A DNA stretch of 64,000 nucleotides, from assembly GCA_021770825.1 (NCBI GenBank), contig JAETQD010000010.1, positions 62,227 to 126,226 of the forward strand, given 5' to 3'. The notes under the pieces were generated by a model, which was given only the letters and a program-made list of their open reading frames with translations, was not told the DNA's origin and searched no databases. Source of the DNA: Clostridium sp. GTDB taxonomy: Bacteria; Bacillota; Clostridia; Lachnospirales; Lachnospiraceae. The position numbers and the translations under genes are program-made. Positions 55,103-64,000 of the stretch are shown here, in pieces (the first letter of the stretch is position 1; each line of letters begins with the position of its first letter).

Positions 55103-58090
55103 TTATTTAGCGGTTACCTTTTTCAAAGCGGTGGGATTGCCCATCCACCGCTCCATGCAGTTCAGCAGCAGCTCGACATTCAATGGTTTCGTCAGATGTT
55201 CATTCATCCCCACCATTTTACTGCGCTTGATGTCTTCTACAAAAGCGTCCGCCGTCATGGCAATAATCGAAATTTCCGATGCATCTCTCCGGTCAAGATT
55301 CCGGATTGCAGACGCTGCATCATATCCATTCATGACCGGCATCTGAATATCCATAAAAATCAGGTCATAGTAGTTCTCGCCCATCTGCTCAAATCGCTCC
55401 ACGGCTTCCCGGCCATTGGACACACTCTCCACAATAACGCCGGTCTGACCGATCAGCTCCTCCGCAATCTCCTGGTTCAATTCATTATCTTCCGCCAGGA
55501 GAACGCGTCTTCCCTGCAATTTCTTTTCCGCTATAAGATTCCCACCGCGCTTTTTCGGGATTTTATCCTCTCCGACAATCTGATTAAACAAATATACCAG
55601 CCTGGACTTAAAAAGTGGTTTTGAGATAAAACCATTGACTCCGGCACTGCGGGCTTCCTCCTCCACGCTGCTCCAATCATAAGCTGACAGAATAATAATC
55701 GGAACATCCGGACCAACCTTCTTGCGGATTGCTCTGGCAGTCTCAATCCCATCCATCTCCGGCATCTTCCAATCCAAAATTACGGCAAAAAAGTCTTCCC
55801 CTGCCTGATGCTGTTCCCAAACTCTCCTCACAGCATCTTTGCCGCACAGTACATATTCTCCCTTCATGCCGATATTTTCCAGAATCAGGCAAGTCATCTC
55901 ACTTGCCTCCTGATCATCGTCCGCAACCAGTATCGGCAGGTCCAGTAAATGTTCCGTACACGGTTCTGCAGTATCCGCAAGCCGGAAAAACAGCGATACT
56001 GAAAATTGTGTTCCTTTTCCAATCTCACTTTCCACTGTAATATCGCCATTCATCCTTCGGGCAATATTTCTCGCAATGGTCATTCCCAGACTGGTTCCTT
56101 CTATCTTACTGATCCGCGAATCCTCCGCCCGGCTGAAGGGCTCAAACATTCTTTCCTGGTATTCCCGGCTCATACCGATTCCCGTATCCCGGAAAACAAA
56201 CTCATATCTGCCATATCCATAGGTGTTTGAATGCTTTTCCGTAATATCCATATCAATTCTTCCGCCTGAAGGAGTGTACTTTACGGCATTGCTCAGTATA
56301 TTCATAAAAATCTGCTGCAGCCTCATAGAATCACCGATCACGCACTCATGCGTGACATTTCCGATATGCACAGAAAATTCATGGTTCTTCTCCTCCATGG
56401 ACGGCCGGATCATCGTTACCAGATTTCCAATCAGATCAAACAGATTGATTTCCTCTTCCGCAAGATCAATTTTTCCGGATTCTATCTTGCTCATATCAAG
56501 GACCTCGTTAATCAGCGACAGAAGATGTCTGCTGGATACGGTAATCTTCCCAAGACAATCCTCCACGCGGTCCCTGTCATCCAGATATTTTCCTGCAATG
56601 GCAGTCATACCAATAATCGCATTCATTGGTGTTCTGATATCATGGCTCATTCGCGACATGAACTCACTCTTGGCCGCGTTTGCATGATTAGCCGCCTCAC
56701 AGGCTTCCTTGAGAGCCTGATGTTCCTTTTCTTCCTTCAATTTGCTGTCTGTCACGTCCTGGGCAACGTACAGGGCACGCTTCGGTCTACCGTCATAAGT
56801 CGTCTCAGCCAGTATAATGGTCGCACGGATCCATGCTTTTTCTGTATCCCTGTCGGTCTGTTTCCTGTATTCAATAGCAGTCAGAGGCTGTTCGCTGCTC
56901 AGCATTTTAAGAAGCTTCGGGTACGCAATATGATCCAGATACGCCTCCTGGTCATCCGGGTGAACAAAGCACTTTGCATACATCTGGATTCCCTGTTCGT
57001 AATTTCTCTCATCTCCCAGGACGCTGCCAACTTCCGCCTTCTGCGTGATCGGCCGAAATGTGTTCTTTTCCAGATCAATATAGTAGGTTGCAAAAAACAT
57101 ACTGCTGAGACAGCTGATGATCGATCTCTTTTCCATCGAATCCCTGAGGGCATGCTCCTCCGCAAGCTTTTCTTTTGTGATATCACGGCCCAGTATGTTG
57201 ACATTGATATCGGTTCCCTGCCGTATGTATAATATATGCTCTTCCGTCCACAGGATCGGATTTCCTTTGTGGCGGTATTGTACGACTTCTTCTTTAAATT
57301 CCTGTACACCGGCAGCATTCTCCCGGAGCTTATCAAACGATAAGGCATTCCAGAACCGCTCTTTGTCCGCATCCACCACCGCATTCTCCAAAGCCTGACG
57401 GATATAAATGGAGTAATCGCCGACCACTGCTCTGTCGGAATCGGTCTTTCTCAGATAAAGGCGTTCACACAATCCCGTTTCCAGATCAACTGTGTTCAAA
57501 ATGCTGTAACCTGATTTTATAATAGCAGCCATCCTTTTATCATTCCGGGACTGCCTCATATCCTTCTTCGTCTGCTCATCTACGTCCTGAAATGCCAGAA
57601 TCACATACGGATCGCCATTATACTTCTCCTTAAAATGGGCAGTTACCAAAACATACCGCCATTGCCCCTGTACCAAGGCCCTGCATACCAGTGTCTTCTT
57701 TTCTCCTGCCTTCCATGCCGTCCGCATCCCTTCCATGGAGAACATATTACTATACATTTCCCGGTCTTCTGATGCGATATAACGAATTCCTCTGTTAAAA
57801 AAGCTGCTGTCCCAAAGAAAAATATCCGACTGGAAAGTCTCTTTGACTAACGGTGTTGTCCGAACGATACTGACACCGCCGGTACTTAAATCCACAACAT
57901 AAACAGCGAAATTGTCTTCTCCAAGCGCATTGATGATTTCCTGATTGCGGATATTGATTTCTTCTCTTTCCAGGCCCTCAATCAGAATGTCATGTACATC
58001 CTTCAAATAAACCATGACACTTTGATTATCATCCGCATAATCAAAGGCCGGAACAATCTCCAGGGTATGCCAGCGAAATCTGTCCCCCAT
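55103..58090 (-). CDS. Soluble hybrid sensor histidine kinase with a ~470-aa N-terminal sensory region (PAS-like), HisKA, HATPase and two C-terminal REC domains
   Basis: HisKA SHDIRTPMNAIIGM. HATPase DTGIGM…GTSLGM. REC1 ILVADDDQ…DWKMPEMDG. REC2 VLLAEDNELN…DIQMPVMNG. No TM segments. Visibly more AT-rich than the upstream core. Confidence 0.85.
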   Translation of the reverse strand: MGDRFRWHTLEIVPAFDYADDNQSVMVYLKDVHDILIEGLEREEINIRNQEIINALGEDNFAVYVVDLSTGGVSIVRTTPLVKETFQSDIFLWDSSFFNRGIRYIASEDREMYSNMFSMEGMRTAWKAGEKKTLVCRALVQGQWRYVLVTAHFKEKYNGDPYVILAFQDVDEQTKKDMRQSRNDKRMAAIIKSGYSILNTVDLETGLCERLYLRKTDSDRAVVGDYSIYIRQALENAVVDADKERFWNALSFDKLRENAAGVQEFKEEVVQYRHKGNPILWTEEHILYIRQGTDINVNILGRDITKEKLAEEHALRDSMEKRSIISCLSSMFFATYYIDLEKNTFRPITQKAEVGSVLGDERNYEQGIQMYAKCFVHPDDQEAYLDHIAYPKLLKMLSSEQPLTAIEYRKQTDRDTEKAWIRATIILAETTYDGRPKRALYVAQDVTDSKLKEEKEHQALKEACEAANHANAAKSEFMSRMSHDIRTPMNAIIGMTAIAGKYLDDRDRVEDCLGKITVSSRHLLSLINEVLDMSKIESGKIDLAEEEINLFDLIGNLVTMIRPSMEEKNHEFSVHIGNVTHECVIGDSMRLQQIFMNILSNAVKYTPSGGRIDMDITEKHSNTYGYGRYEFVFRDTGIGMSREYQERMFEPFSRAEDSRISKIEGTSLGMTIARNIARRMNGDITVESEIGKGTQFSVSLFFRLADTAEPCTEHLLDLPILVADDDQEASEMTCLILENIGMKGEYVLCGKDAVRRVWEQHQAGEDFFAVILDWKMPEMDGIETARAIRKKVGPDVPIIILSAYDWSSVEEEARSAGVNGFISKPLFKSRLVYLFNQIVGEDKIPKKRGGNLIAEKKLQGRRVLLAEDNELNQEIAEELIGQTGVIVESVSNGREAVERFEQMGENYYDLIFMDIQMPVMNGYDAASAIRNLDRRDASEISIIAMTADAFVEDIKRSKMVGMNEHLTKPLNVELLLNCMERWMGNPTALKKVTAK

Positions 58091-58141
58091 TTTTCGCCGG
58101 TACGAACAGGTCAGGACTTTTGTCCCCTTTTTAAACTCCTT

Positions 58142-58820
58142 CTACAGCTTCGATATCTGTATAAAATGGAGATATCGCTCCAAATCCTCCTTATAGATAT
58201 ATTTCCGGCTGGCAATTCCTTCCATCCACGCAGAAAACGAATCCATATACTCTCTCATATCCAGCATTTCCGCTTCATCCACGTTGATGATGTCAAACGT
58301 ATCGCTGCTTAAGTTGGCCCGCAGCACTTTGTGATATACCTGATTCGACACCTCCGCGTGCGGCGTTACTGTGATCAAAAAAGCGAGAATCTCATCTTCC
58401 CAACAGATTCTCGTTGCAGCAATCTCCACGGCCTTTCCGAAGGGATCATCATAACTGAACGAACGGGCCTTATCCCCGTTGCCAATATAGAGCAATGGAC
58501 AGTTCCCGCATGTTCCTTTCCATAGCTCATGACAGACCATACCTATTTGTATGTTCGGTGCCACATCTTTTACCCGCTTGTTATAATATAAAATCAAGTT
58601 TTAAAAGTTTGTTATATGTTAAATACAGGATCTTTTTATCTTGAGGTATCAACTCACACAAATACTGAATTGCTGTAGTTTTTCCGCTTCCTATACATGC
58701 CTCCACAAGAATATTCCCACCTTTTAGAGCAAATTCAATGAACTCTCTTTGCTCTTCAGACAAGCTGAATTCACTATTTCTTATCTTCATGTGTTCATAC
58801 CCCCCCTCTTTCGCTATCAA
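58142..58820 (-). pseudogene. Frameshifted and 3'-truncated UvrD/PcrA-like helicase remnant (N-terminal ~225 aa only)
   Basis: The 58820-58581 fragment carries Walker A (NILVEACIGSGKTTAI). A +1 frame at about 58590 continues with IGMVCHELW (motif Ib-like TFHSFC) and FDIINVDEAEML (motif II-like). A stop follows about 40 aa later and motifs III-VI are absent. Confidence 0.5.
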
Positions 58821-59152
58821 TCAACATTTCTAAGCATTCCTTAAATCTCCCATCATGCTCTTACGTAGCACTCTTGCTTCGTTCATAAATGTCTGCCGAA
58901 CATCTTTTAATAAATCAATGTAATTTTTTCGTTTAAAACATCAAGCTCATTACTGCCATACAGCACTTCCTACTTGCCGAAAAAGTATTCTTACACCCAA
59001 AAATATTTCTTCACTTTAGGCTGCCTATCCCCCTAGGTAAATCAATTCCCTCATACCCATTCTACGGAAACTTAAAACACACATCCATATTTGCCCCAAA
59101 TCACCCAACCGCTTTGATTTAGCGGGCTTTCCTCGACAGCAGAGCGACTGTC

Positions 59153-59254
59153 TCAACATGTGTGGTTACCGCAGTTGAAACACATATCCTCTGCCTCGTG
59201 TCCTGAAAAAGAACACATATCGTTATCATTCAACAAGTCGTGATTATCGCTCAT
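59153..59254 (-). CDS. Small Cys-rich ORF (33 aa) immediately downstream of the recombinase, not in the ORF track
   Basis: Perfect AGGAGG 9 nt upstream. Translates to MSDNHDLLNDNDMCSFSGHEAEDMCFNCGNHTC (C-x10-C-x2-C-x4-C). Begins 24 nt after the recombinase stop. Confidence 0.3.
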   Translation of the reverse strand: MSDNHDLLNDNDMCSFSGHEAEDMCFNCGNHTC

Positions 59255-59277
59255 TTTAAAGCTCCTCCTTGTTGTTT

Positions 59278-60969
59278 TTATACTGCCTGCTTATGAAGAT
59301 TTTTGTACCTGTCCTTTGCATGCGGCACACTACAGTCATCCATACCCTTTAATACAAAAGTAAGCTTGTATGGGTCAGTACTGCCATCCTCTGCAATCTC
59401 TCCGACAATCACCTTCTCCACAATGCTTTCAAATACCAGTCTGTCAAATTCATCCGTCACATCGGCATTCTTAAGCTTTGCTCTAATGATTTTCATACGG
59501 CTTGCAATATTCTTTTGGGACATAGCATTCTCGGAAAACAACAGCTTTTCTTCCTCACACTTGTCCAGTTTGTGATTCAATTCACTGTATTTTTCTTCAT
59601 AAGCCTCTTTAGAAATTTTATCATCCAGATACATGTCGGTCAATTTCTTTCTCTTTTTTTCAAGAGTCGAAATTTCCTTCTCCACCCGCTTTAGCTTCTC
59701 AGTGCTGTCATCCTTTGAAATAGCAGCTTCCAATGATGAAAGCACCGATTCCAGCACATCATCAAAATTCTCAGCCAGTAGCCGAAACATCTCCAGAAAT
59801 GCATTCTCTATGATAACCTCATCAATTGCCTTGCTGTGCGGACAGTTTTCAATTCCTTTATTGGCTGCTGTCCTGCATTTCCATACAGGCTTTTTATGCT
59901 GTGTATCCTGATGATGGGAACGCCTTGTAAGATTCGTTCCACAGAAACCACACTGACACATACTGCTGAATGCGTACTTCCTTGCAAACTTGGTTCTTGC
60001 CCCATCGGACACATTCTCATTGGTACGATATCTACTCTCGCGAATCTCCTGTGCCTTGTTCCATATTTCCTCCGAAATAATGGGCTCATGATGGTTCCTT
60101 GTATAATATTTATTGGATTCCCCACGATTATCAAGCCGCCTCTTGGAAATCGGATCAACGGTATAAGTCTTACCCATAAGCAGGGCGCCCTTATACTTCT
60201 CATTCTTTAGAATGCCCCGGATACCGCTATCCGTCCACTTAACCTCGCCCTTCTTATTCACTTTGCCCCGCCTCGTAAGTTCCTTGGCAATGGTATAAGC
60301 ACCATATCCCTGCACATACAAATCAAAAATCATATGGACTGTCTCAGCCTCTTTTTCATTGATGGTAATGCTTTTGTCTTCCGGGTGATAATCATATCCG
60401 AGACAACCATTGAACCCCATCAGCTCCCCTCTGGACATCTTCATCTGAACGCCCAGGGAAACATTCTGTGACAGAGATTCCACCTCATTCTGCGCCAGTG
60501 CTGATAGAAGTGATAACTGCATTTCACTCTCCATGGTGGAAGTGTCAATATTTTCTTTCTCAAATATGACTGTCACTCCCTTTGCCTTCAACATTCTTGT
60601 ATAAGAAAGCACATCCACAAGATTTCTCGAAAATCTGGATACCGACTTGGTAATGACAATATCCACCAGACCGTTCATACAGTCATCAATCATGCGCAAA
60701 AACTCATCTCTCTTGGTGGTCTTAGTTCCCGTTATGCCCTCGTCCGCATAAATGCCTACAAGCGCCCACTCCTTATTTGCAGAAATTTTGTCCTGATAAT
60801 ACTCCTTCTGAGACTTAAAACTCTGCAACTGCTCCTCTGCATTTGTACTGACACGCACATATGCCGCCACTCGTTTTCTTGTGATGGTAAGTGGCTTCCC
60901 CACCAGTCTTCGGTCCCTGATAACAGGACCTTCAACTTTCTTAATTACTTCTACTTGTCTTTCTTCCAT
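59278..60969 (-). CDS. Large serine recombinase (resolvase/invertase catalytic domain, recombinase domain, zinc ribbon, coiled-coil)
   Basis: N-terminal catalytic domain AAYVRVSTNAEEQLQSFKSQKEYY (Ser nucleophile). Recombinase domain. Zn ribbon C…CGFCG…C. Long C-terminal coiled coil. 563 aa. Confidence 0.9.
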   Translation of the reverse strand: MEERQVEVIKKVEGPVIRDRRLVGKPLTITRKRVAAYVRVSTNAEEQLQSFKSQKEYYQDKISANKEWALVGIYADEGITGTKTTKRDEFLRMIDDCMNGLVDIVITKSVSRFSRNLVDVLSYTRMLKAKGVTVIFEKENIDTSTMESEMQLSLLSALAQNEVESLSQNVSLGVQMKMSRGELMGFNGCLGYDYHPEDKSITINEKEAETVHMIFDLYVQGYGAYTIAKELTRRGKVNKKGEVKWTDSGIRGILKNEKYKGALLMGKTYTVDPISKRRLDNRGESNKYYTRNHHEPIISEEIWNKAQEIRESRYRTNENVSDGARTKFARKYAFSSMCQCGFCGTNLTRRSHHQDTQHKKPVWKCRTAANKGIENCPHSKAIDEVIIENAFLEMFRLLAENFDDVLESVLSSLEAAISKDDSTEKLKRVEKEISTLEKKRKKLTDMYLDDKISKEAYEEKYSELNHKLDKCEEEKLLFSENAMSQKNIASRMKIIRAKLKNADVTDEFDRLVFESIVEKVIVGEIAEDGSTDPYKLTFVLKGMDDCSVPHAKDRYKNLHKQAV

Positions 60970-61078
60970 GCAAAAACTCCTTTCAAAAATCTGTCTGTAT
61001 ACGTTAAGTAGGCAGCAACAAAATATCTGCTACTGCCTACACTATAAATCATAATGAAAATGTTAACGAATGTGCGGA

Positions 61079-61222
61079 TTATGCAGTCATAAAACTGATA
61101 ACATCATATTCGCCCATAATATGAATTCTTGTTCTGTTGTACTCATCTTCCGTAATCAGTCCCTTACGAAAAATCCATCCCAACACCGCAAGCTTCTTAC
61201 TCAACTCCAGCTCCTTCGTCAT
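61079..61222 (-). CDS. Small ORF (47 aa) upstream of the recombinase on the same strand. Hypothetical, possibly a recombination directionality factor or XkdX-like.
   Basis: Translates to MTKELELSKKLAVLGWIFRKGLITEDEYNRTRIHIMGEYDVISFMTA. AGAGGGG about 6 nt before ATG. Not in the ORF track. Confidence 0.3.
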   Translation of the reverse strand: MTKELELSKKLAVLGWIFRKGLITEDEYNRTRIHIMGEYDVISFMTA

Positions 61223-61417
61223 AAGCTAACACCCCTCTTTCCTAATAATCTGACTTATCACCTTCTTTCTGCATAAATGCTGTGATAATACACGAATTGC
61301 TGATAAGATAAAGTTCTTTTGGCTTCCATTCGTATCCTATGCCGTCAGCGTTACAGCTGACCTTTAGCTCATTGCCTGCGGGCTACTCCTGCTCGAGTTC
61401 CTTTCCCACCTTTATTC

Positions 61418-61437
61418 AAGAATGCCTCGGCATTCTT
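61418..61437. repeat. Perfect 20-bp palindrome AAGAATGCC-TC-GGCATTCTT (9-bp arms around a non-palindromic TC dinucleotide)
   Basis: Read directly from the sequence. No T-run follows on either strand, so it is not a classic terminator. Confidence 0.6.
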
Positions 61438-61439
61438 GT

Positions 61440-61524
61440 GGCAAAACGCACACCGTGTGTAACACGGTAATTTCCTTGTGCGTTTCTGCCATCCGCCGGA
61501 GGCTTCTTTATGTGAATAAAGAAG
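61440..61524. repeat. Nested inverted repeats. 13-bp arms GGCAAAACGCACA/TGTGCGTTTCTGCC enclose a CCGTG-tgtaa-CACGG hairpin. A perfect 9-bp stem CTTCTTTAT-gtga-ATAAAGAAG (GNRA-like loop) follows.
   Basis: Read directly from the sequence. Together with the palindrome they fill the divergent intergenic region between the recombinase operon and the STAND gene. Confidence 0.5.
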
Positions 61525-61645
61525 TGTCTTCCCTCGCTCCTCCTAACTTCTCAGTTCTCCTCGCAAGGTCTGTTGGCATAAGATACAGCTCATGAATCCG
61601 TTTCCGGATTGTTTATCAAGGTTCAAAATACAAAAAGATTTAGTA

Positions 61646-61672
61646 GAACATTTGTTCTTTTTGTGTTATAAT
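61646..61672 (+). promoter_or_regulatory. Extended -10 promoter (TGtTATAAT) with an overlapping LexA/Cheo box GAACATTTGTTC, upstream of the STAND gene
   Basis: tagtaGAACATTTGTTCtttttgTGtTATAATc. GAAC-N4-GTTC is the Firmicutes LexA operator core. The -10 is consensus with a TG extension, about 110 nt upstream of the ORF. Confidence 0.5.
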
Positions 61673-61781
61673 CTTCTTGTAGCCAAGCCATTTCTCTCAT
61701 GGCTTCTGGTGGCTACGTTTTCATGGGTTAATGATACGAAATTTTGTCTTGGATTATCATTGACGGAAAGTTGACCGGAAG

Positions 61782-63845
61782 TTGACGAAAAAGTTAGGAA
61801 GTGATGAATTGCAGAACCGCATTACCTTCTCCAACGTAATCGGAGTGTTATTGGAAAATAAAAAGAAAACTTATGCACAGTACCAGATGATTGAAGACAT
61901 CTTCTACGACTGCCTGGGCAACATGGATTTATTTGAAAAAGAGGATTTTGAAAAAAATGTTACCTACAGCAGATGGTGTACCGGAGAGCGCCCGATACCC
62001 AAGGAAATATTATCCTTTTATGACAATTGCGGATTTGACGGCATTCAGGATAATATTCAGGATGATGTAATTCCAAACCTTATCAATGTGCCAGCCACAA
62101 GGAAACTGCTTTTAGAATTGGTTATGGACAGTGTGGATGTAATTGGTACAAAAAAGGCGGATGAATTTGCCCAGATAACCGATGATGCAGAGCTTATCAC
62201 TGCCCTTATCCGCTACGCCATATTAAATGACCATGACAGCAGACACACCCTGTTATCACCTAATTTATCGGATATTCTTCTGAGTAACAAGCTTCCTTCT
62301 GTAAACCGCTATTTTCTCGGAAGAAAAGAGGAAATAAAGGTCGTTAGCAAAGCTTTGCAGGAAAACAATCTTGTATTTATCACCGGCACTGCCGGTATGG
62401 GTAAAAGTGAACTGGCAAAGGTCTATGCCAAAAAGAATGAAAAGAAATACACCAACATCATTCACTTATTTTACGATGGTGATTTAAAGAAATGTGTTGC
62501 TCAGATGGAATTTAGTGATGATACCGCGGACATGAGCGAAGATATGCTCCTAGACAGACATATGAAACTATTAAAAAAGCTCCACTCTGACAGTCTCATT
62601 ATCATTGACAACTTCAATGTTCTGCCAAAAGAGGATGCTTTCTTTAAGGAATTTATAAAAATGAACTGTAAGATACTGGTTACCAGCCGGTGCAATATCT
62701 CTCAGTTTAAGACGGTAAAAGTTTCTGAAATGGACGCAGATACAGAGCTTGTAGAACTGTTTTATAAGCATTGCCCTTCTGCAAAGAGTTCTGAAGATGT
62801 GGTAAAGGACATTATCCAGACGGTGGGCTGTCACACCCTTACTGTATGCCTGTCTGCATTATCCCTGACAGCCAGCGGCATGGAACCGGAAGAACTGCTT
62901 GCTGAACTGAGAACTTGTGGGCTGAATATCGCCTCCGGGGAAGATGTGGAACTGTATAAAGATGATGATTTTACTGACGGACTGATGATCGAGCATTTAC
63001 GCAAACTGTTACAACTTGGCAAATTGTCCAATCAGCAATTGGACATTCTTTGCAATCTGTCTCTGCTACCAGTTGCCGGCATATTAAAGAACAGCTTCAA
63101 GAACTGGATGAGACTTGATAACCTTGCGGATGTAAACCACCTTATTAAATACGGATTTATCAACGAAGATACAGATAACAAGAAAATCAGCCTGCATCCA
63201 CTGTTACAGGAAGTGATTTCCATTGAAACCATACCAACCATAACTGCCTGCCGGACTCTGCTTAATAGCCTCCACCTTGTCTGCCTGGCACATGGCTTGG
63301 AACTTCGCAGGCCGGAAAATATCATTGCTTCCCTTATCAGTGTATCAGAGCGCATTATAGTAGATGATGGTGCATATTTCTTACTGTTTTTACAGGATAT
63401 GTTCCCATATCTGGACAAATACCTTGTATCGGATTACCTGCCGAAACTAACTGATAGAATCAGCTATCTTATGGAAGAATACAAGCTGGAATCTCCATGT
63501 GACAGGGCATTGCTACTGGATTATAAGGCAGAGTGTTTTCTGTTGAAAAAGGATTACGCAAATGCAGTTAAGGAACGTGAAAAGGCAATCAACATCATGG
63601 AAAAGATGCATACAAAAGATGCAGATATGCGAACTGCAAACCTGCTATCCAATCTGTACAACAACCTTTCCAACACTTATCTGCTGATGAAGCGTGGAAA
63701 TGAGGCAGCCAATGCACTCCGTACAGCCTTTGATATCCGTATGGAATATACACACTTGGGACTTACCGAATCCCATGATTCCCTGCAACAGATGATGAAC
63801 CTTATCAATATACTGTTGCTGGCAAAGTATACGGTAAATAGCTAG
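61782..63845 (+). CDS. STAND-class NTPase with an N-terminal ~190-aa (possibly HTH-like) domain, an NB-ARC-like P-loop ATPase and C-terminal TPR-like helical repeats
   Basis: Walker A FITGTAGMGKSELAK. Walker B SLIIIDNFN. ILVTSRC (hhhTSR/TTR-like). GCHTLTV at the GxP position. C-terminal ~300 aa are helical repeats. WCTGERPIPKEIL resembles the XRE-HTH W-x-x-G-x-R-x-P pattern. The start is uncertain: TTG at 61782, or more likely TTG at about 61809 with AGGAAG 7 nt upstream. Confidence 0.8.
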   Translation: MTKKLGSDELQNRITFSNVIGVLLENKKKTYAQYQMIEDIFYDCLGNMDLFEKEDFEKNVTYSRWCTGERPIPKEILSFYDNCGFDGIQDNIQDDVIPNLINVPATRKLLLELVMDSVDVIGTKKADEFAQITDDAELITALIRYAILNDHDSRHTLLSPNLSDILLSNKLPSVNRYFLGRKEEIKVVSKALQENNLVFITGTAGMGKSELAKVYAKKNEKKYTNIIHLFYDGDLKKCVAQMEFSDDTADMSEDMLLDRHMKLLKKLHSDSLIIIDNFNVLPKEDAFFKEFIKMNCKILVTSRCNISQFKTVKVSEMDADTELVELFYKHCPSAKSSEDVVKDIIQTVGCHTLTVCLSALSLTASGMEPEELLAELRTCGLNIASGEDVELYKDDDFTDGLMIEHLRKLLQLGKLSNQQLDILCNLSLLPVAGILKNSFKNWMRLDNLADVNHLIKYGFINEDTDNKKISLHPLLQEVISIETIPTITACRTLLNSLHLVCLAHGLELRRPENIIASLISVSERIIVDDGAYFLLFLQDMFPYLDKYLVSDYLPKLTDRISYLMEEYKLESPCDRALLLDYKAECFLLKKDYANAVKEREKAINIMEKMHTKDADMRTANLLSNLYNNLSNTYLLMKRGNEAANALRTAFDIRMEYTHLGLTESHDSLQQMMNLINILLLAKYTVNS

Positions 63846-63920
63846 TACCGTGCCAGTTTCGCTAAAATCTGAGATAATCAACTTTGAAAAAACTAAGTTT
63901 TTATAGAGGAGGACTATCTC

Positions 63921-64000
63921 ATGGATAAATCAACCCATCAGATCCGGCGTGAACAATGGACTCAGATCATCAATAACTGCCTTGCCAGCGGCCAGTCTAA
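63921..64000 (+). CDS. 5' end of an ORF running off the window. Possibly an HTH-containing transposase or regulator N-terminus.
   Basis: AGAGGAGG ribosome-binding site, then ATG. Translates to MDKSTHQIRREQWTQIINNCLASGQS… Only 26 codons are visible. Confidence 0.25.
   Translation, partial: MDKSTHQIRREQWTQIINNCLASGQS

Follow-up and report, generated by a model that had tools for sequence, protein, structure and literature searches.

A stretch of 64,000 nucleotides from Clostridium sp. of the family Lachnospiraceae (assembly GCA_021770825.1, contig JAETQD010000010.1, positions 62,227 to 126,226), the whole of which is called the window below, carries close to its right end a gene for a signal transduction ATPase with numerous domains (STAND). 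When this gene was compared with its homologues one arrangement was found to be constant, consisting of a recombination operon preceded by a structured RNA that reads into it and, in the opposite direction, a LexA-type box followed by the STAND gene, while the defence genes around it are variable neighbours. This combination of a constant recombinase-RNA-STAND unit with variable defence genes favours a role in the element backbone, and judged from sequence comparison the family appears to belong to the backbone of integrative (mobilizable) elements in Lachnospiraceae and other Clostridia. We tentatively favour, with somewhat less than even confidence, the reading that the protein is an SOS-linked, ligand-gated ATP switch of the recombination/induction module of the element. 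The copy in the window is an interrupted allele and should be annotated as truncated.

The association with recombinases was followed in 80 species-representative genomes, nearly all of Lachnospiraceae or other Clostridia, containing relatives at 29–59% identity (81% at one locus). A divergent serine recombinase was identified within 1.3 kb upstream of the STAND gene at 47 loci and a divergent tyrosine integrase, mostly together with a Xis-like gene, at 15; neither type was present upstream at 11 loci, and at seven the upstream sequence was too short to assess. A divergent recombinase directly upstream is accordingly found at 62 of the 73 assessable loci (85%). All close metagenomic loci are organised likewise, with the STAND gene divergent from a serine recombinase and an open reading frame (ORF) of 47–50 amino acids (aa), and the pairing of the gene with recombinase operon and RNA persists over 29–99% identity. 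Isolates in which the module is intact include Roseburia porci MUC/MUC-530-WT-4D (L092), Lacrimispora amygdalina DSM 12857 (L043) and Eubacterium sp. 14-2 (L073). The small ORF, 47 aa long in the window, was recovered by phmmer in more than 25 of the 80 genome loci and occupies the relative position of Xis in the tyrosine-integrase variants; it may be an accessory or directionality factor.

The covariance model built for the structured RNA, termed R1, was run on 88 sources totalling 1.3 Mb and found it in 54 of them, with a single copy at each locus that is always antisense to the STAND gene and about 230–430 nt upstream of it. The RNA invariably lies between a recombinase operon and that gene. 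Its core is about 180 nt and the window copy 279 nt, with an extra hairpin insert of ~66–100 nt in a junction loop. A plain MAFFT alignment of 15 diverse copies revealed 41 base pairs in seven helices, with 91% of the cells paired compared with 35–44% in slid controls and with compensatory changes in 19 pairs, values that none of 500 shuffles reached; on an alignment fitted to the covariance model 33 of the 41 pairs covary. When the window RNA was searched against Rfam 15 no family matched at gathering scores, and in E-value mode the matches were at chance level (E of at least 1). The frequent G-U pairs and the GNRA and UUCG loops in the variable hairpins place the RNA on the minus strand, where the z-score of the fold is -2.0 compared with -0.2 on the plus strand; a plus-strand RNA was rejected on this z-score and the G-U pairs, and since the loops are readable on the minus strand alone. 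R1 reads toward the 47-aa ORF and the serine recombinase, or toward Xis and the tyrosine integrase, and thereby has the position of a leader to the recombinase operon. RNA and STAND gene stay together also where one recombinase family has replaced the other.

The same association appeared from the side of the RNA. An RNA-first scan, in which an RNA-only pattern was run on metagenomes, gave 71 loci, 65 of them assessable; in 64 of the 65 a divergent STAND homologue is situated 250–790 nt on the 5' side, about 11 of these being decayed remnants, and in 58 loci a serine recombinase is found on the 3' side of R1. A decayed form of the module recurs in metagenome loci (L125, L135, L136, L144, L157, L158, L162–L164 and L171), in which the RNA is kept together with a STAND fragment of ~96 aa (residues 233–328) and a short recombinase fragment.

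A LexA box had been proposed in the promoter of the gene, and a Cheo-type box is indeed present over the -35/spacer region. The lone copy in the window is no more than chance would give (one GAAC-N4-GTTC in 64 kb, with 0.83 expected), and what makes it significant is its position, which is conserved in distant subfamilies. The box is located at -158 to -178 from the STAND start at 11 of 76 loci, among them loci of the 29%-identity subfamily, an 18-fold excess over background density, and versions with one mismatch are visible at additional loci. It is invariant in one of the alignments (A2), and the intergenic blocks are better conserved than the recombinase gene. These data support a real LexA-type operator, predicted to act on the STAND promoter. 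The 5' untranslated region (UTR) contains a hairpin (GTAGCC..GGCTAC), an inverted repeat (AATGATA-N18-TATCATT) and, immediately before the start codon, two or three direct AAGTTGAC repeats; in locus L010 a 69-nt hairpin insert follows the -10 element. Small conserved peptides in the intergenic blocks were considered and rejected, as the ORFs run across the variable insert.

An ORF of 687 aa was confirmed at 61782..63845 on the plus strand, and the STAND motif order described for it in the original prediction was recovered: Walker A GTAGMGKS at residues 202–209, Walker B LIIIDNFN at 272–279, TSR at 301–303 and GCHTL at 349–353 in the GxP position (all in the numbering of the window ORF), followed by tetratricopeptide repeats (TPRs). 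An MHD-like LHP at 471–473 precedes the repeats. The GxP position thus reads as an H-T dipeptide (H342/T343 in family numbering) and not as GxP. In an alignment of 42 members at 23–53% identity the motifs are invariant or nearly so; F169/G171/R172, G193/G196/G198/K199 and D267 (family numbering) are invariant and present in the window ORF, where the Walker A lysine K199 is K208, TTR (R294) and LHP (H/P464) are nearly invariant, and the FxGR(E) strand, Walker A and Walker B of STAND NTPases are all found.

The same prediction, which had seen the ORF and its motifs, overlooked both the conserved intergenic RNA and the truncation: the ORF is real but is not full length. All close homologues (89–99% identity) are 776–790 aa, and the window protein departs from them after residue 682 (...LLLAK), with a stop five codons on. 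Blastn matched 59159..61440 and 61475..63827 of the window to intact loci at 98–99% identity, and the homology stops at 63827, within the gene. The sequence from 63828 onwards had no match among plasmids or any fetched locus; the ORF that starts at 63922 (MDKSTHQIRREQWTQIINNCLASGQS...) may encode an accessory protein of an insertion sequence (IS), perhaps similar to IS66 TnpA. Judged from the alignment, ~100 aa at the end of the TPR sensor have been lost to an insertion at 63828, and with these residues missing the window copy is probably inactive. At the other end, the likely start is the TTG at 61809 (MQNRITF...) and not 61782, since the N-termini of the family read M-[EQ]-[NR]-R-x-[DT]-F-S.

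The window protein itself falls below all Pfam, NCBIfam and PADLOC thresholds (AAA_18 29.0 bits; nSTAND1 22.7 compared with a cut-off of 27.1; NB-ARC 15.9 compared with 23.5; FxSxx_TPR 37 compared with 300), although other members of the family do match STAND models. Among the 42 members Pfam matches were obtained to AAA_16 in 38, to TPR_12 in 31, to nSTAND6 in 25, to NB-ARC in 11 (best 1e-9) and to TPR_MalT in eight. A profile of the NTPase module run against the PDB found as its best matches the STAND proteins PH0952 (2e-5), Avs4 (2e-3) and Apaf-1 (0.01), and a profile of the TPR region found kinesin-light-chain TPRs at 1e-18 (positions 545–765), with AfsR and MalT as weak matches. The nearest relatives with another N-terminus are Pkinase-NB-ARC-TPR proteins, in which the NB-ARC cut-off is passed at 47.7 bits. 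On the strength of these results the STAND assignment is sound at family level, and the proposal of an NB-ARC-like ATPase with TPRs on a mobile island holds; the full-length protein is predicted to be an NB-ARC-type STAND NTPase of 781 aa composed of an N-terminal domain, the NTPase and kinesin-light-chain-like TPRs. Structure prediction of the full protein from the single sequence with AlphaFold2 (AF2) reached a pLDDT of only 40.

When cluster representatives at 50% identity were searched exhaustively, 3,439 relatives were found at E<=1e-3, and at E<=1e-30 the number was 369. Many are 750–790 aa long and aligned from residue 1. Their source names are "tetratricopeptide repeat protein" or "AAA family ATPase" and the hosts named are Lachnospiraceae, Mediterraneibacter, [Ruminococcus] torques and Agathobacter; the family is large, unannotated and found chiefly in Lachnospiraceae.

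The N-terminal domain (family residues 1–172) had been described as lacking a recognisable enzymatic effector while containing an XRE-type helix-turn-helix (HTH)-like segment. The former was upheld: no nuclease, protease, SIR2, TIR or transmembrane effector of the cell-killing kind was found at the N-terminus, and the invariant residues (F, W, G, P) are structural and not catalytic-looking. The latter was not. Searches with 25 N-domains returned no Pfam family and no HTH family even at E<=1, and a PDB profile search gave only the XRE-type repressor 5d50 (E 0.37) and YdiL (E 0.72). The domain is acidic, with a median isoelectric point (pI) of 4.6 and a net charge of -9, and the HTH-like segment has a net charge of -3. 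An AF2 model from a 25-sequence alignment is confident and all-alpha (pLDDT 80.8, pTM 0.74), and Foldseek found no match to it in PDB or BFVD, which leaves the domain without a known fold relative. An XRE-HTH was rejected on the missing family match and the acidic charge. The domain can thus be recognised as no enzyme, and a DNA-binding HTH is not credible; the most economical reading is that of a putative protein-protein adaptor.

When the left side of the unit was analysed, homology to four other loci (L001, L002, L015 and L017) was found to begin at 59159, a point on which four different left flanks converge. The junction is an imperfect palindrome, ..GTCTCCACA/TGTGTSGGGAC.. (..CACA/TGTGTGG.. 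at 59159 of the window, the slash marking the junction), which was seen in at least four different contexts and is a candidate crossover or att site inside a gene. Two loci, L009 and L010, share exactly 5,234 bp comprising recombinase, small ORF, RNA and STAND gene at 99.85% identity and have unrelated flanks, and the recombinase-RNA-STAND block often assembles as a separate contig of 5.06–5.09 kb that ends ~10 nt past the STAND stop; both observations point to a constant block with variable surroundings. These contigs were considered as excised circles, which was rejected as they have no terminal overlap; their ends are points where the assembly breaks off, at either edge of the block. An autonomous 5.2-kb transposon was not established either, since the ends have imperfect palindromes but no shared repeats. 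Identities of recombinase and STAND gene are discordant at the DNA level (64% versus 85% between L002 and L010, 97% versus 84% between L002 and L015), which shows that the modules recombine, with an intergenic breakpoint.

The large serine recombinase noted beside the ORF in the original prediction was confirmed (Table 1) and resembles CcrB, CcrC and XisF in NCBIfam, below the cut-offs. The recombinase of the P0061 group (L015–L020, 7586..9264, minus strand) is split by a frameshift or a programmed shift into ORFs of 438 and 121 aa, and STAND gene and RNA are intact. The AT-richer block that had been noticed is present, with a GC content of 0.39–0.44 over 58000–64000 compared with about 0.45–0.55 upstream. 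Outside the conserved block, the AT-rich stretch to its left contains 78 aa from the N-terminus of a UvrD/GajB-like helicase (PADLOC GajB, 4e-5) and a 150-aa ORF without matches, and is probably the remnant of an older island.

Table 1. Positions of the features in and around the conserved unit of the window
Feature	Position	Strand	Evidence or remark
AT-rich stretch outside the conserved block	58091..59158, especially 58581..58820	-	UvrD/GajB-like fragment
Small Cys-rich ORF (MSDNHDLLNDNDMCSFSGHEAEDMCFNCGNHTC) 3' of the recombinase	59153..59254	-	cut at 59159, where the conserved block begins on its left side
Large serine recombinase, 563 aa, intact	59278..60969	-	Pfam Resolvase 8e-30, Recombinase 3e-25, Zn_ribbon_recom 4e-12, all above cut-offs
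47-aa ORF between RNA and recombinase	61079..61222	-	weakly SHOCT-like (E=0.007); called in all related loci
Structured RNA, model R1	61315..61593	-	cmsearch 131 bits, E 4e-40, full length
LexA (Cheo)-type box GAACATTTGTTC	61646..61657	+	overlaps -35/spacer of the STAND promoter
Extended -10 element TGTTATAAT of the STAND promoter	61664..61672	+	read from sequence; invariant in alignment A2
STAND 5' UTR	61680..61808	+	conserved leader features
N-terminal domain (family residues 1–172)	61809..62324	+	acidic, all-alpha, about 10 helices
STAND NTPase module (nucleotide-binding domain, helical and winged-helix parts)	62325..63278	+	invariant columns; PDB profile matches; NB-ARC/nSTAND matches in the family
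Walker A; Walker B; TSR; HT; LHP	62385-62408; 62595-62618; 62682-62690; 62832-62837; 63192-63200	+	
Remaining TPR sensor	63279..63827	+	TPR_12 match; kinesin-light-chain profile; alignment shows C-terminus lost
Foreign insertion	63828..64000	+	adds 5 codons and a stop (63843-63845); homology break; new ORF from 63922

The flanks of the close copies vary and are rich in defence genes, namely Abi_2/AbiD, Avs2, Pycsar-type cyclases, SymE, type I restriction-modification (RM), AbiE, parts of Lamassu, TIR-SLFN and OLD/UvrD (Gabija-like). The evidence on the proposed Avs/bNACHT-type sensor is divided: defence genes do surround the close copies, but no PADLOC Avs or NLR (nucleotide-binding leucine-rich repeat) model matches the protein, and the constant partner of the gene is the recombinase operon with the RNA and not a defence gene. 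In the PADLOC search that recognised the neighbouring AbiD (8e-66) and Avs2 (1,397 aa, 2e-175), the STAND proteins (window protein, P0011, P0121 and P0272) solely gave P-loop-level mad8 matches of 18–21 bits. In L002 (12506..17681), as in L015–L020, an intact STAND gene is followed by AbiD and then by a convergent, bona fide Avs2, so that the element carries a genuine Avs beside a non-Avs STAND. AbiD is located directly 3' of the STAND gene in the 98–99% (P0011), 91% (P0061) and 54% (P0121) groups and at 6–7 of the 80 genome loci. In L002 it has its own promoter (TTGACA-17-TATATT), and a hairpin lies between the two genes; a two-gene operon as a general rule was rejected on account of this promoter, the hairpin and the minority of loci concerned. 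Most loci, including the 5.2-kb core, are without a partner effector gene.

A subfamily at ~30% identity is found inside the backbones of integrative mobilizable elements (IMEs) with ALP_N (ParM-like), RepA_N, IstB-like, DUF3847 and MobA_MobL genes, where its partners are either two serine recombinases and an ORF of 55 aa or else ORFs of the sigma70_r2 and HTH_3 types; defence genes were not found nearby. In L029–L033, L026 and L111 (e.g. Mediterraneibacter gnavus AP031446.1) an IME-like block of ~10 kb beside a comM-like gene has the order sigma70_r2, HTH_3, STAND, then ALP_N, RepA_N, IstB-like, DUF3847 and MobA_MobL. Neither a recombinase nor the R1 RNA is present at these loci, and the sigma-like neighbour could be a hint of a role linked to transcription. 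Homologues were also seen in three short unannotated fecal contigs of a phage collection and at 18 IMG/VR loci, and a phage origin of the family was rejected on this small yield. In several predicted proviral contigs of IMG/VR (L190–L193 and others) the distant homologue is situated at the extreme end of the predicted viral region, as though it marked the margin of integrated elements.

The switch reading named at the outset would work as follows. DNA damage would lift LexA repression, upon which the STAND protein would be made; the TPR array would bind a protein or ligand cue, and the NTPase would switch or oligomerise; through contacts with protein (or RNA) the N-domain would then relay the signal to the leader/recombinase module, and this relay would gate excision or induction of the element. 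The comparisons establish the architecture, the truncation, the synteny, the structure of the RNA and the conservation of the box, whereas we infer the LexA/SOS control, the sensed cue and any effect of the protein on recombinase expression or recombination. That the STAND protein has no PADLOC match while its neighbours AbiD and Avs2 are recognised speaks for the reading. So do the divergent recombinase at most loci, the RNA kept with the STAND gene across recombinase families, the outcome of the RNA-first scan, the constant block between varying flanks, the well-conserved intergenic blocks, the placement of the LexA box in distant subfamilies, the IME backbones around deep-branching relatives and an N-domain devoid of catalytic-looking invariant residues. 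Several points weigh against it. The output step is unexplained, as no DNA- or RNA-binding domain was detected and the N-domain is acidic; the adjacent recombinase is absent in 11 of the 73 loci; the phylogenies of recombinase and STAND are discordant, and hence the two do not co-evolve as a protein pair; and in the literature searched no STAND regulator of element excision was found. The tripartite layout with STAND and TPRs and the defence-rich surroundings fit Avs-type sensors equally, and integrase-adjacent genes are classic cargo hotspots. A further-reading proposal, rather improbable in our estimate, is that STAND, RNA and recombinase operon constitute a new mobile-element switch, an SOS-primed NLR-like sensor that acts on the leader RNA or by way of it and so licenses excision or escape, or else that the RNA is a direct ligand or partner of the STAND protein in RNA-dependent defence. 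The cue of such a sensor may be a phage protein, a helper element or a damage signal, and a pattern-recognition receptor would then be wired to site-specific recombination instead of cell death.

The main rival, unlikely though by no means far-fetched, is that the protein is instead an Avs/NLR-like sensor against phages or other mobile elements, which the element would keep as fixed cargo at the end nearest its integrase. The TPRs would then sense a phage protein, the NTPase would oligomerise, and the helical N-domain would be a death-fold-like adaptor or a non-enzymatic effector; a separate effector such as AbiD would be possible, and the RNA may or may not participate. The succession of N-domain, STAND and TPRs is that of such sensors, the short list of PDB profile matches includes Avs4 and Apaf-1, and the close copies are embedded among the defence genes listed above, with AbiD directly downstream in some groups. 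Lee et al. 2026 (PMC13581612) report an association with defence for roughly one in three prokaryotic STAND clades, most of these having TPR-like sensors, a figure that also agrees with this explanation. On the other side, no Avs, NLR or bNACHT model of PADLOC matched, an enzymatic or membrane effector was not found and a partner effector is absent at most loci, AbiD having a strong promoter of its own at the minority where it occurs. Here the gene is constant and the defence genes around it vary, the reverse of what is seen with cargo at hotspots; defence genes are missing around the ~30%-identity subfamily; and a leader-like RNA common to two unrelated recombinase types would be left unexplained.

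A transcription factor of the GutR/MalT/AfsR type, in which a degenerate N-terminal HTH (RW-x-x-G) would act on intergenic operators and activate or repress the divergent promoters, is to be doubted strongly. Size and layout of nucleotide-binding oligomerisation domain (NOD) and TPRs are similar, in line with the TPR_MalT matches and the weak AfsR and MalT matches mentioned above; the conserved RWxxG...P resembles helix 3 and the following loop of HTH_3, in line with the weak 5d50 and YdiL matches, and the divergent-promoter position beside int/xis is that of phage and ICE (integrative and conjugative element) regulators. Against these stand the 25 N-domains without an HTH and the acidity of the domain, including its HTH-like segment. 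The catabolic operon that the original prediction had considered as a neighbour was not found: the neighbours are recombinases, IME replication and mobilisation genes or defence genes. A GutR/MalT-like DNA-binding regulator is thus unlikely. We give equally little credence to mere linkage, according to which the RNA is just a recombinase leader and the STAND protein a passenger with host-directed signalling, as in its Ser/Thr-kinase-NB-ARC-TPR relatives. The discordant histories of recombinase and STAND agree with such a passenger, but the RNA remains with the STAND gene on a change of recombinase family, a STAND homologue is present at nearly all assessable RNA-first loci, and the pairing holds from distant to nearly identical copies.

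The roles known for STAND/NLR proteins in bacteria are those of antiphage sensors and transcription factors, and a third role as a fixed part of the recombination control of integrative elements was not found described in the literature searched, nor was the STAND-RNA-recombinase module or this element family. The family is abundant in human-gut Lachnospiraceae, where one variant was seen on 631 contigs; for relatives the number is at least 1,000. As the elements ferry AbiD, Avs2, Pycsar and Lamassu, the trigger of the module may govern how defence islands move among gut bacteria. The STAND NTPase is of a kind already known; new here are the N-terminal domain of ~170 aa without a fold relative, its systematic pairing with operons for recombinases and an RNA motif that covaries strongly and has no Rfam entry, and the value of a follow-up lies mainly in the module of the three.

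Among known systems, the antiviral STAND (Avs) proteins, reportedly described by Gao and colleagues in 2022, come first to mind. Avs1-5 and Avs7-21 (PMC13581612) share with the present family an N-terminal output domain, a STAND NTPase and a TPR-like sensor, and likewise occur on mobile elements with defence genes nearby. The present protein differs from them in having no PADLOC Avs match, in its much smaller size (781 aa), in its non-enzymatic, acidic and helical N-domain and in having a recombinase operon and the structured RNA as constant partners. GutR of B. subtilis, MalT of E. coli and AfsR of Streptomyces are comparable in size and combine NOD and TPR sensor in the logic of a ligand-gated ATP switch, whereas the protein described here is without a recognisable DNA-binding domain and is situated in mobile-element recombination modules and not next to operons for catabolism or biosynthesis. 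The Pkinase-NB-ARC-TPR proteins are homologous in NOD and kinesin-light-chain-type TPRs from query residue ~155 onwards (E about 1e-43) but have a Ser/Thr kinase N-terminus and a length of 930–1170 aa. The best match of solved structure, the TPR-sensor STAND PH0952 of Pyrococcus horikoshii (PDB 6mfv), shares FxGR, Walker A, Walker B and TTR; it is archaeal, has no equivalent of the N-domain, and the similarity spans just about 130 residues.

Regulators on the int/xis side are common in phages, ICEs and Staphylococcus aureus pathogenicity islands (SaPIs), such as cI/cro, ImmR/ImmA and Stl/Str, together with LexA-controlled antirepressors such as Tum of coliphage 186. The present module resembles these in the divergent promoter region between recombination genes and regulator and in the SOS input, which here is predicted. 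To our knowledge, neither a STAND NTPase nor this leader RNA occurs in any of these systems, whose regulators are small HTH proteins or proteases. RNAs linked to recombinases or integrases include int-alpA of Rfam and similar leaders, the IS110 bridge RNA and the omega RNAs of IscB/TnpB, all of which, like R1, are structured non-coding RNAs directly upstream of or beside a recombinase gene. No evidence of a guide function was seen for R1, and it differs from these RNAs in having no Rfam 15 match above chance even at E<=10 and in following the STAND gene and not one recombinase family.

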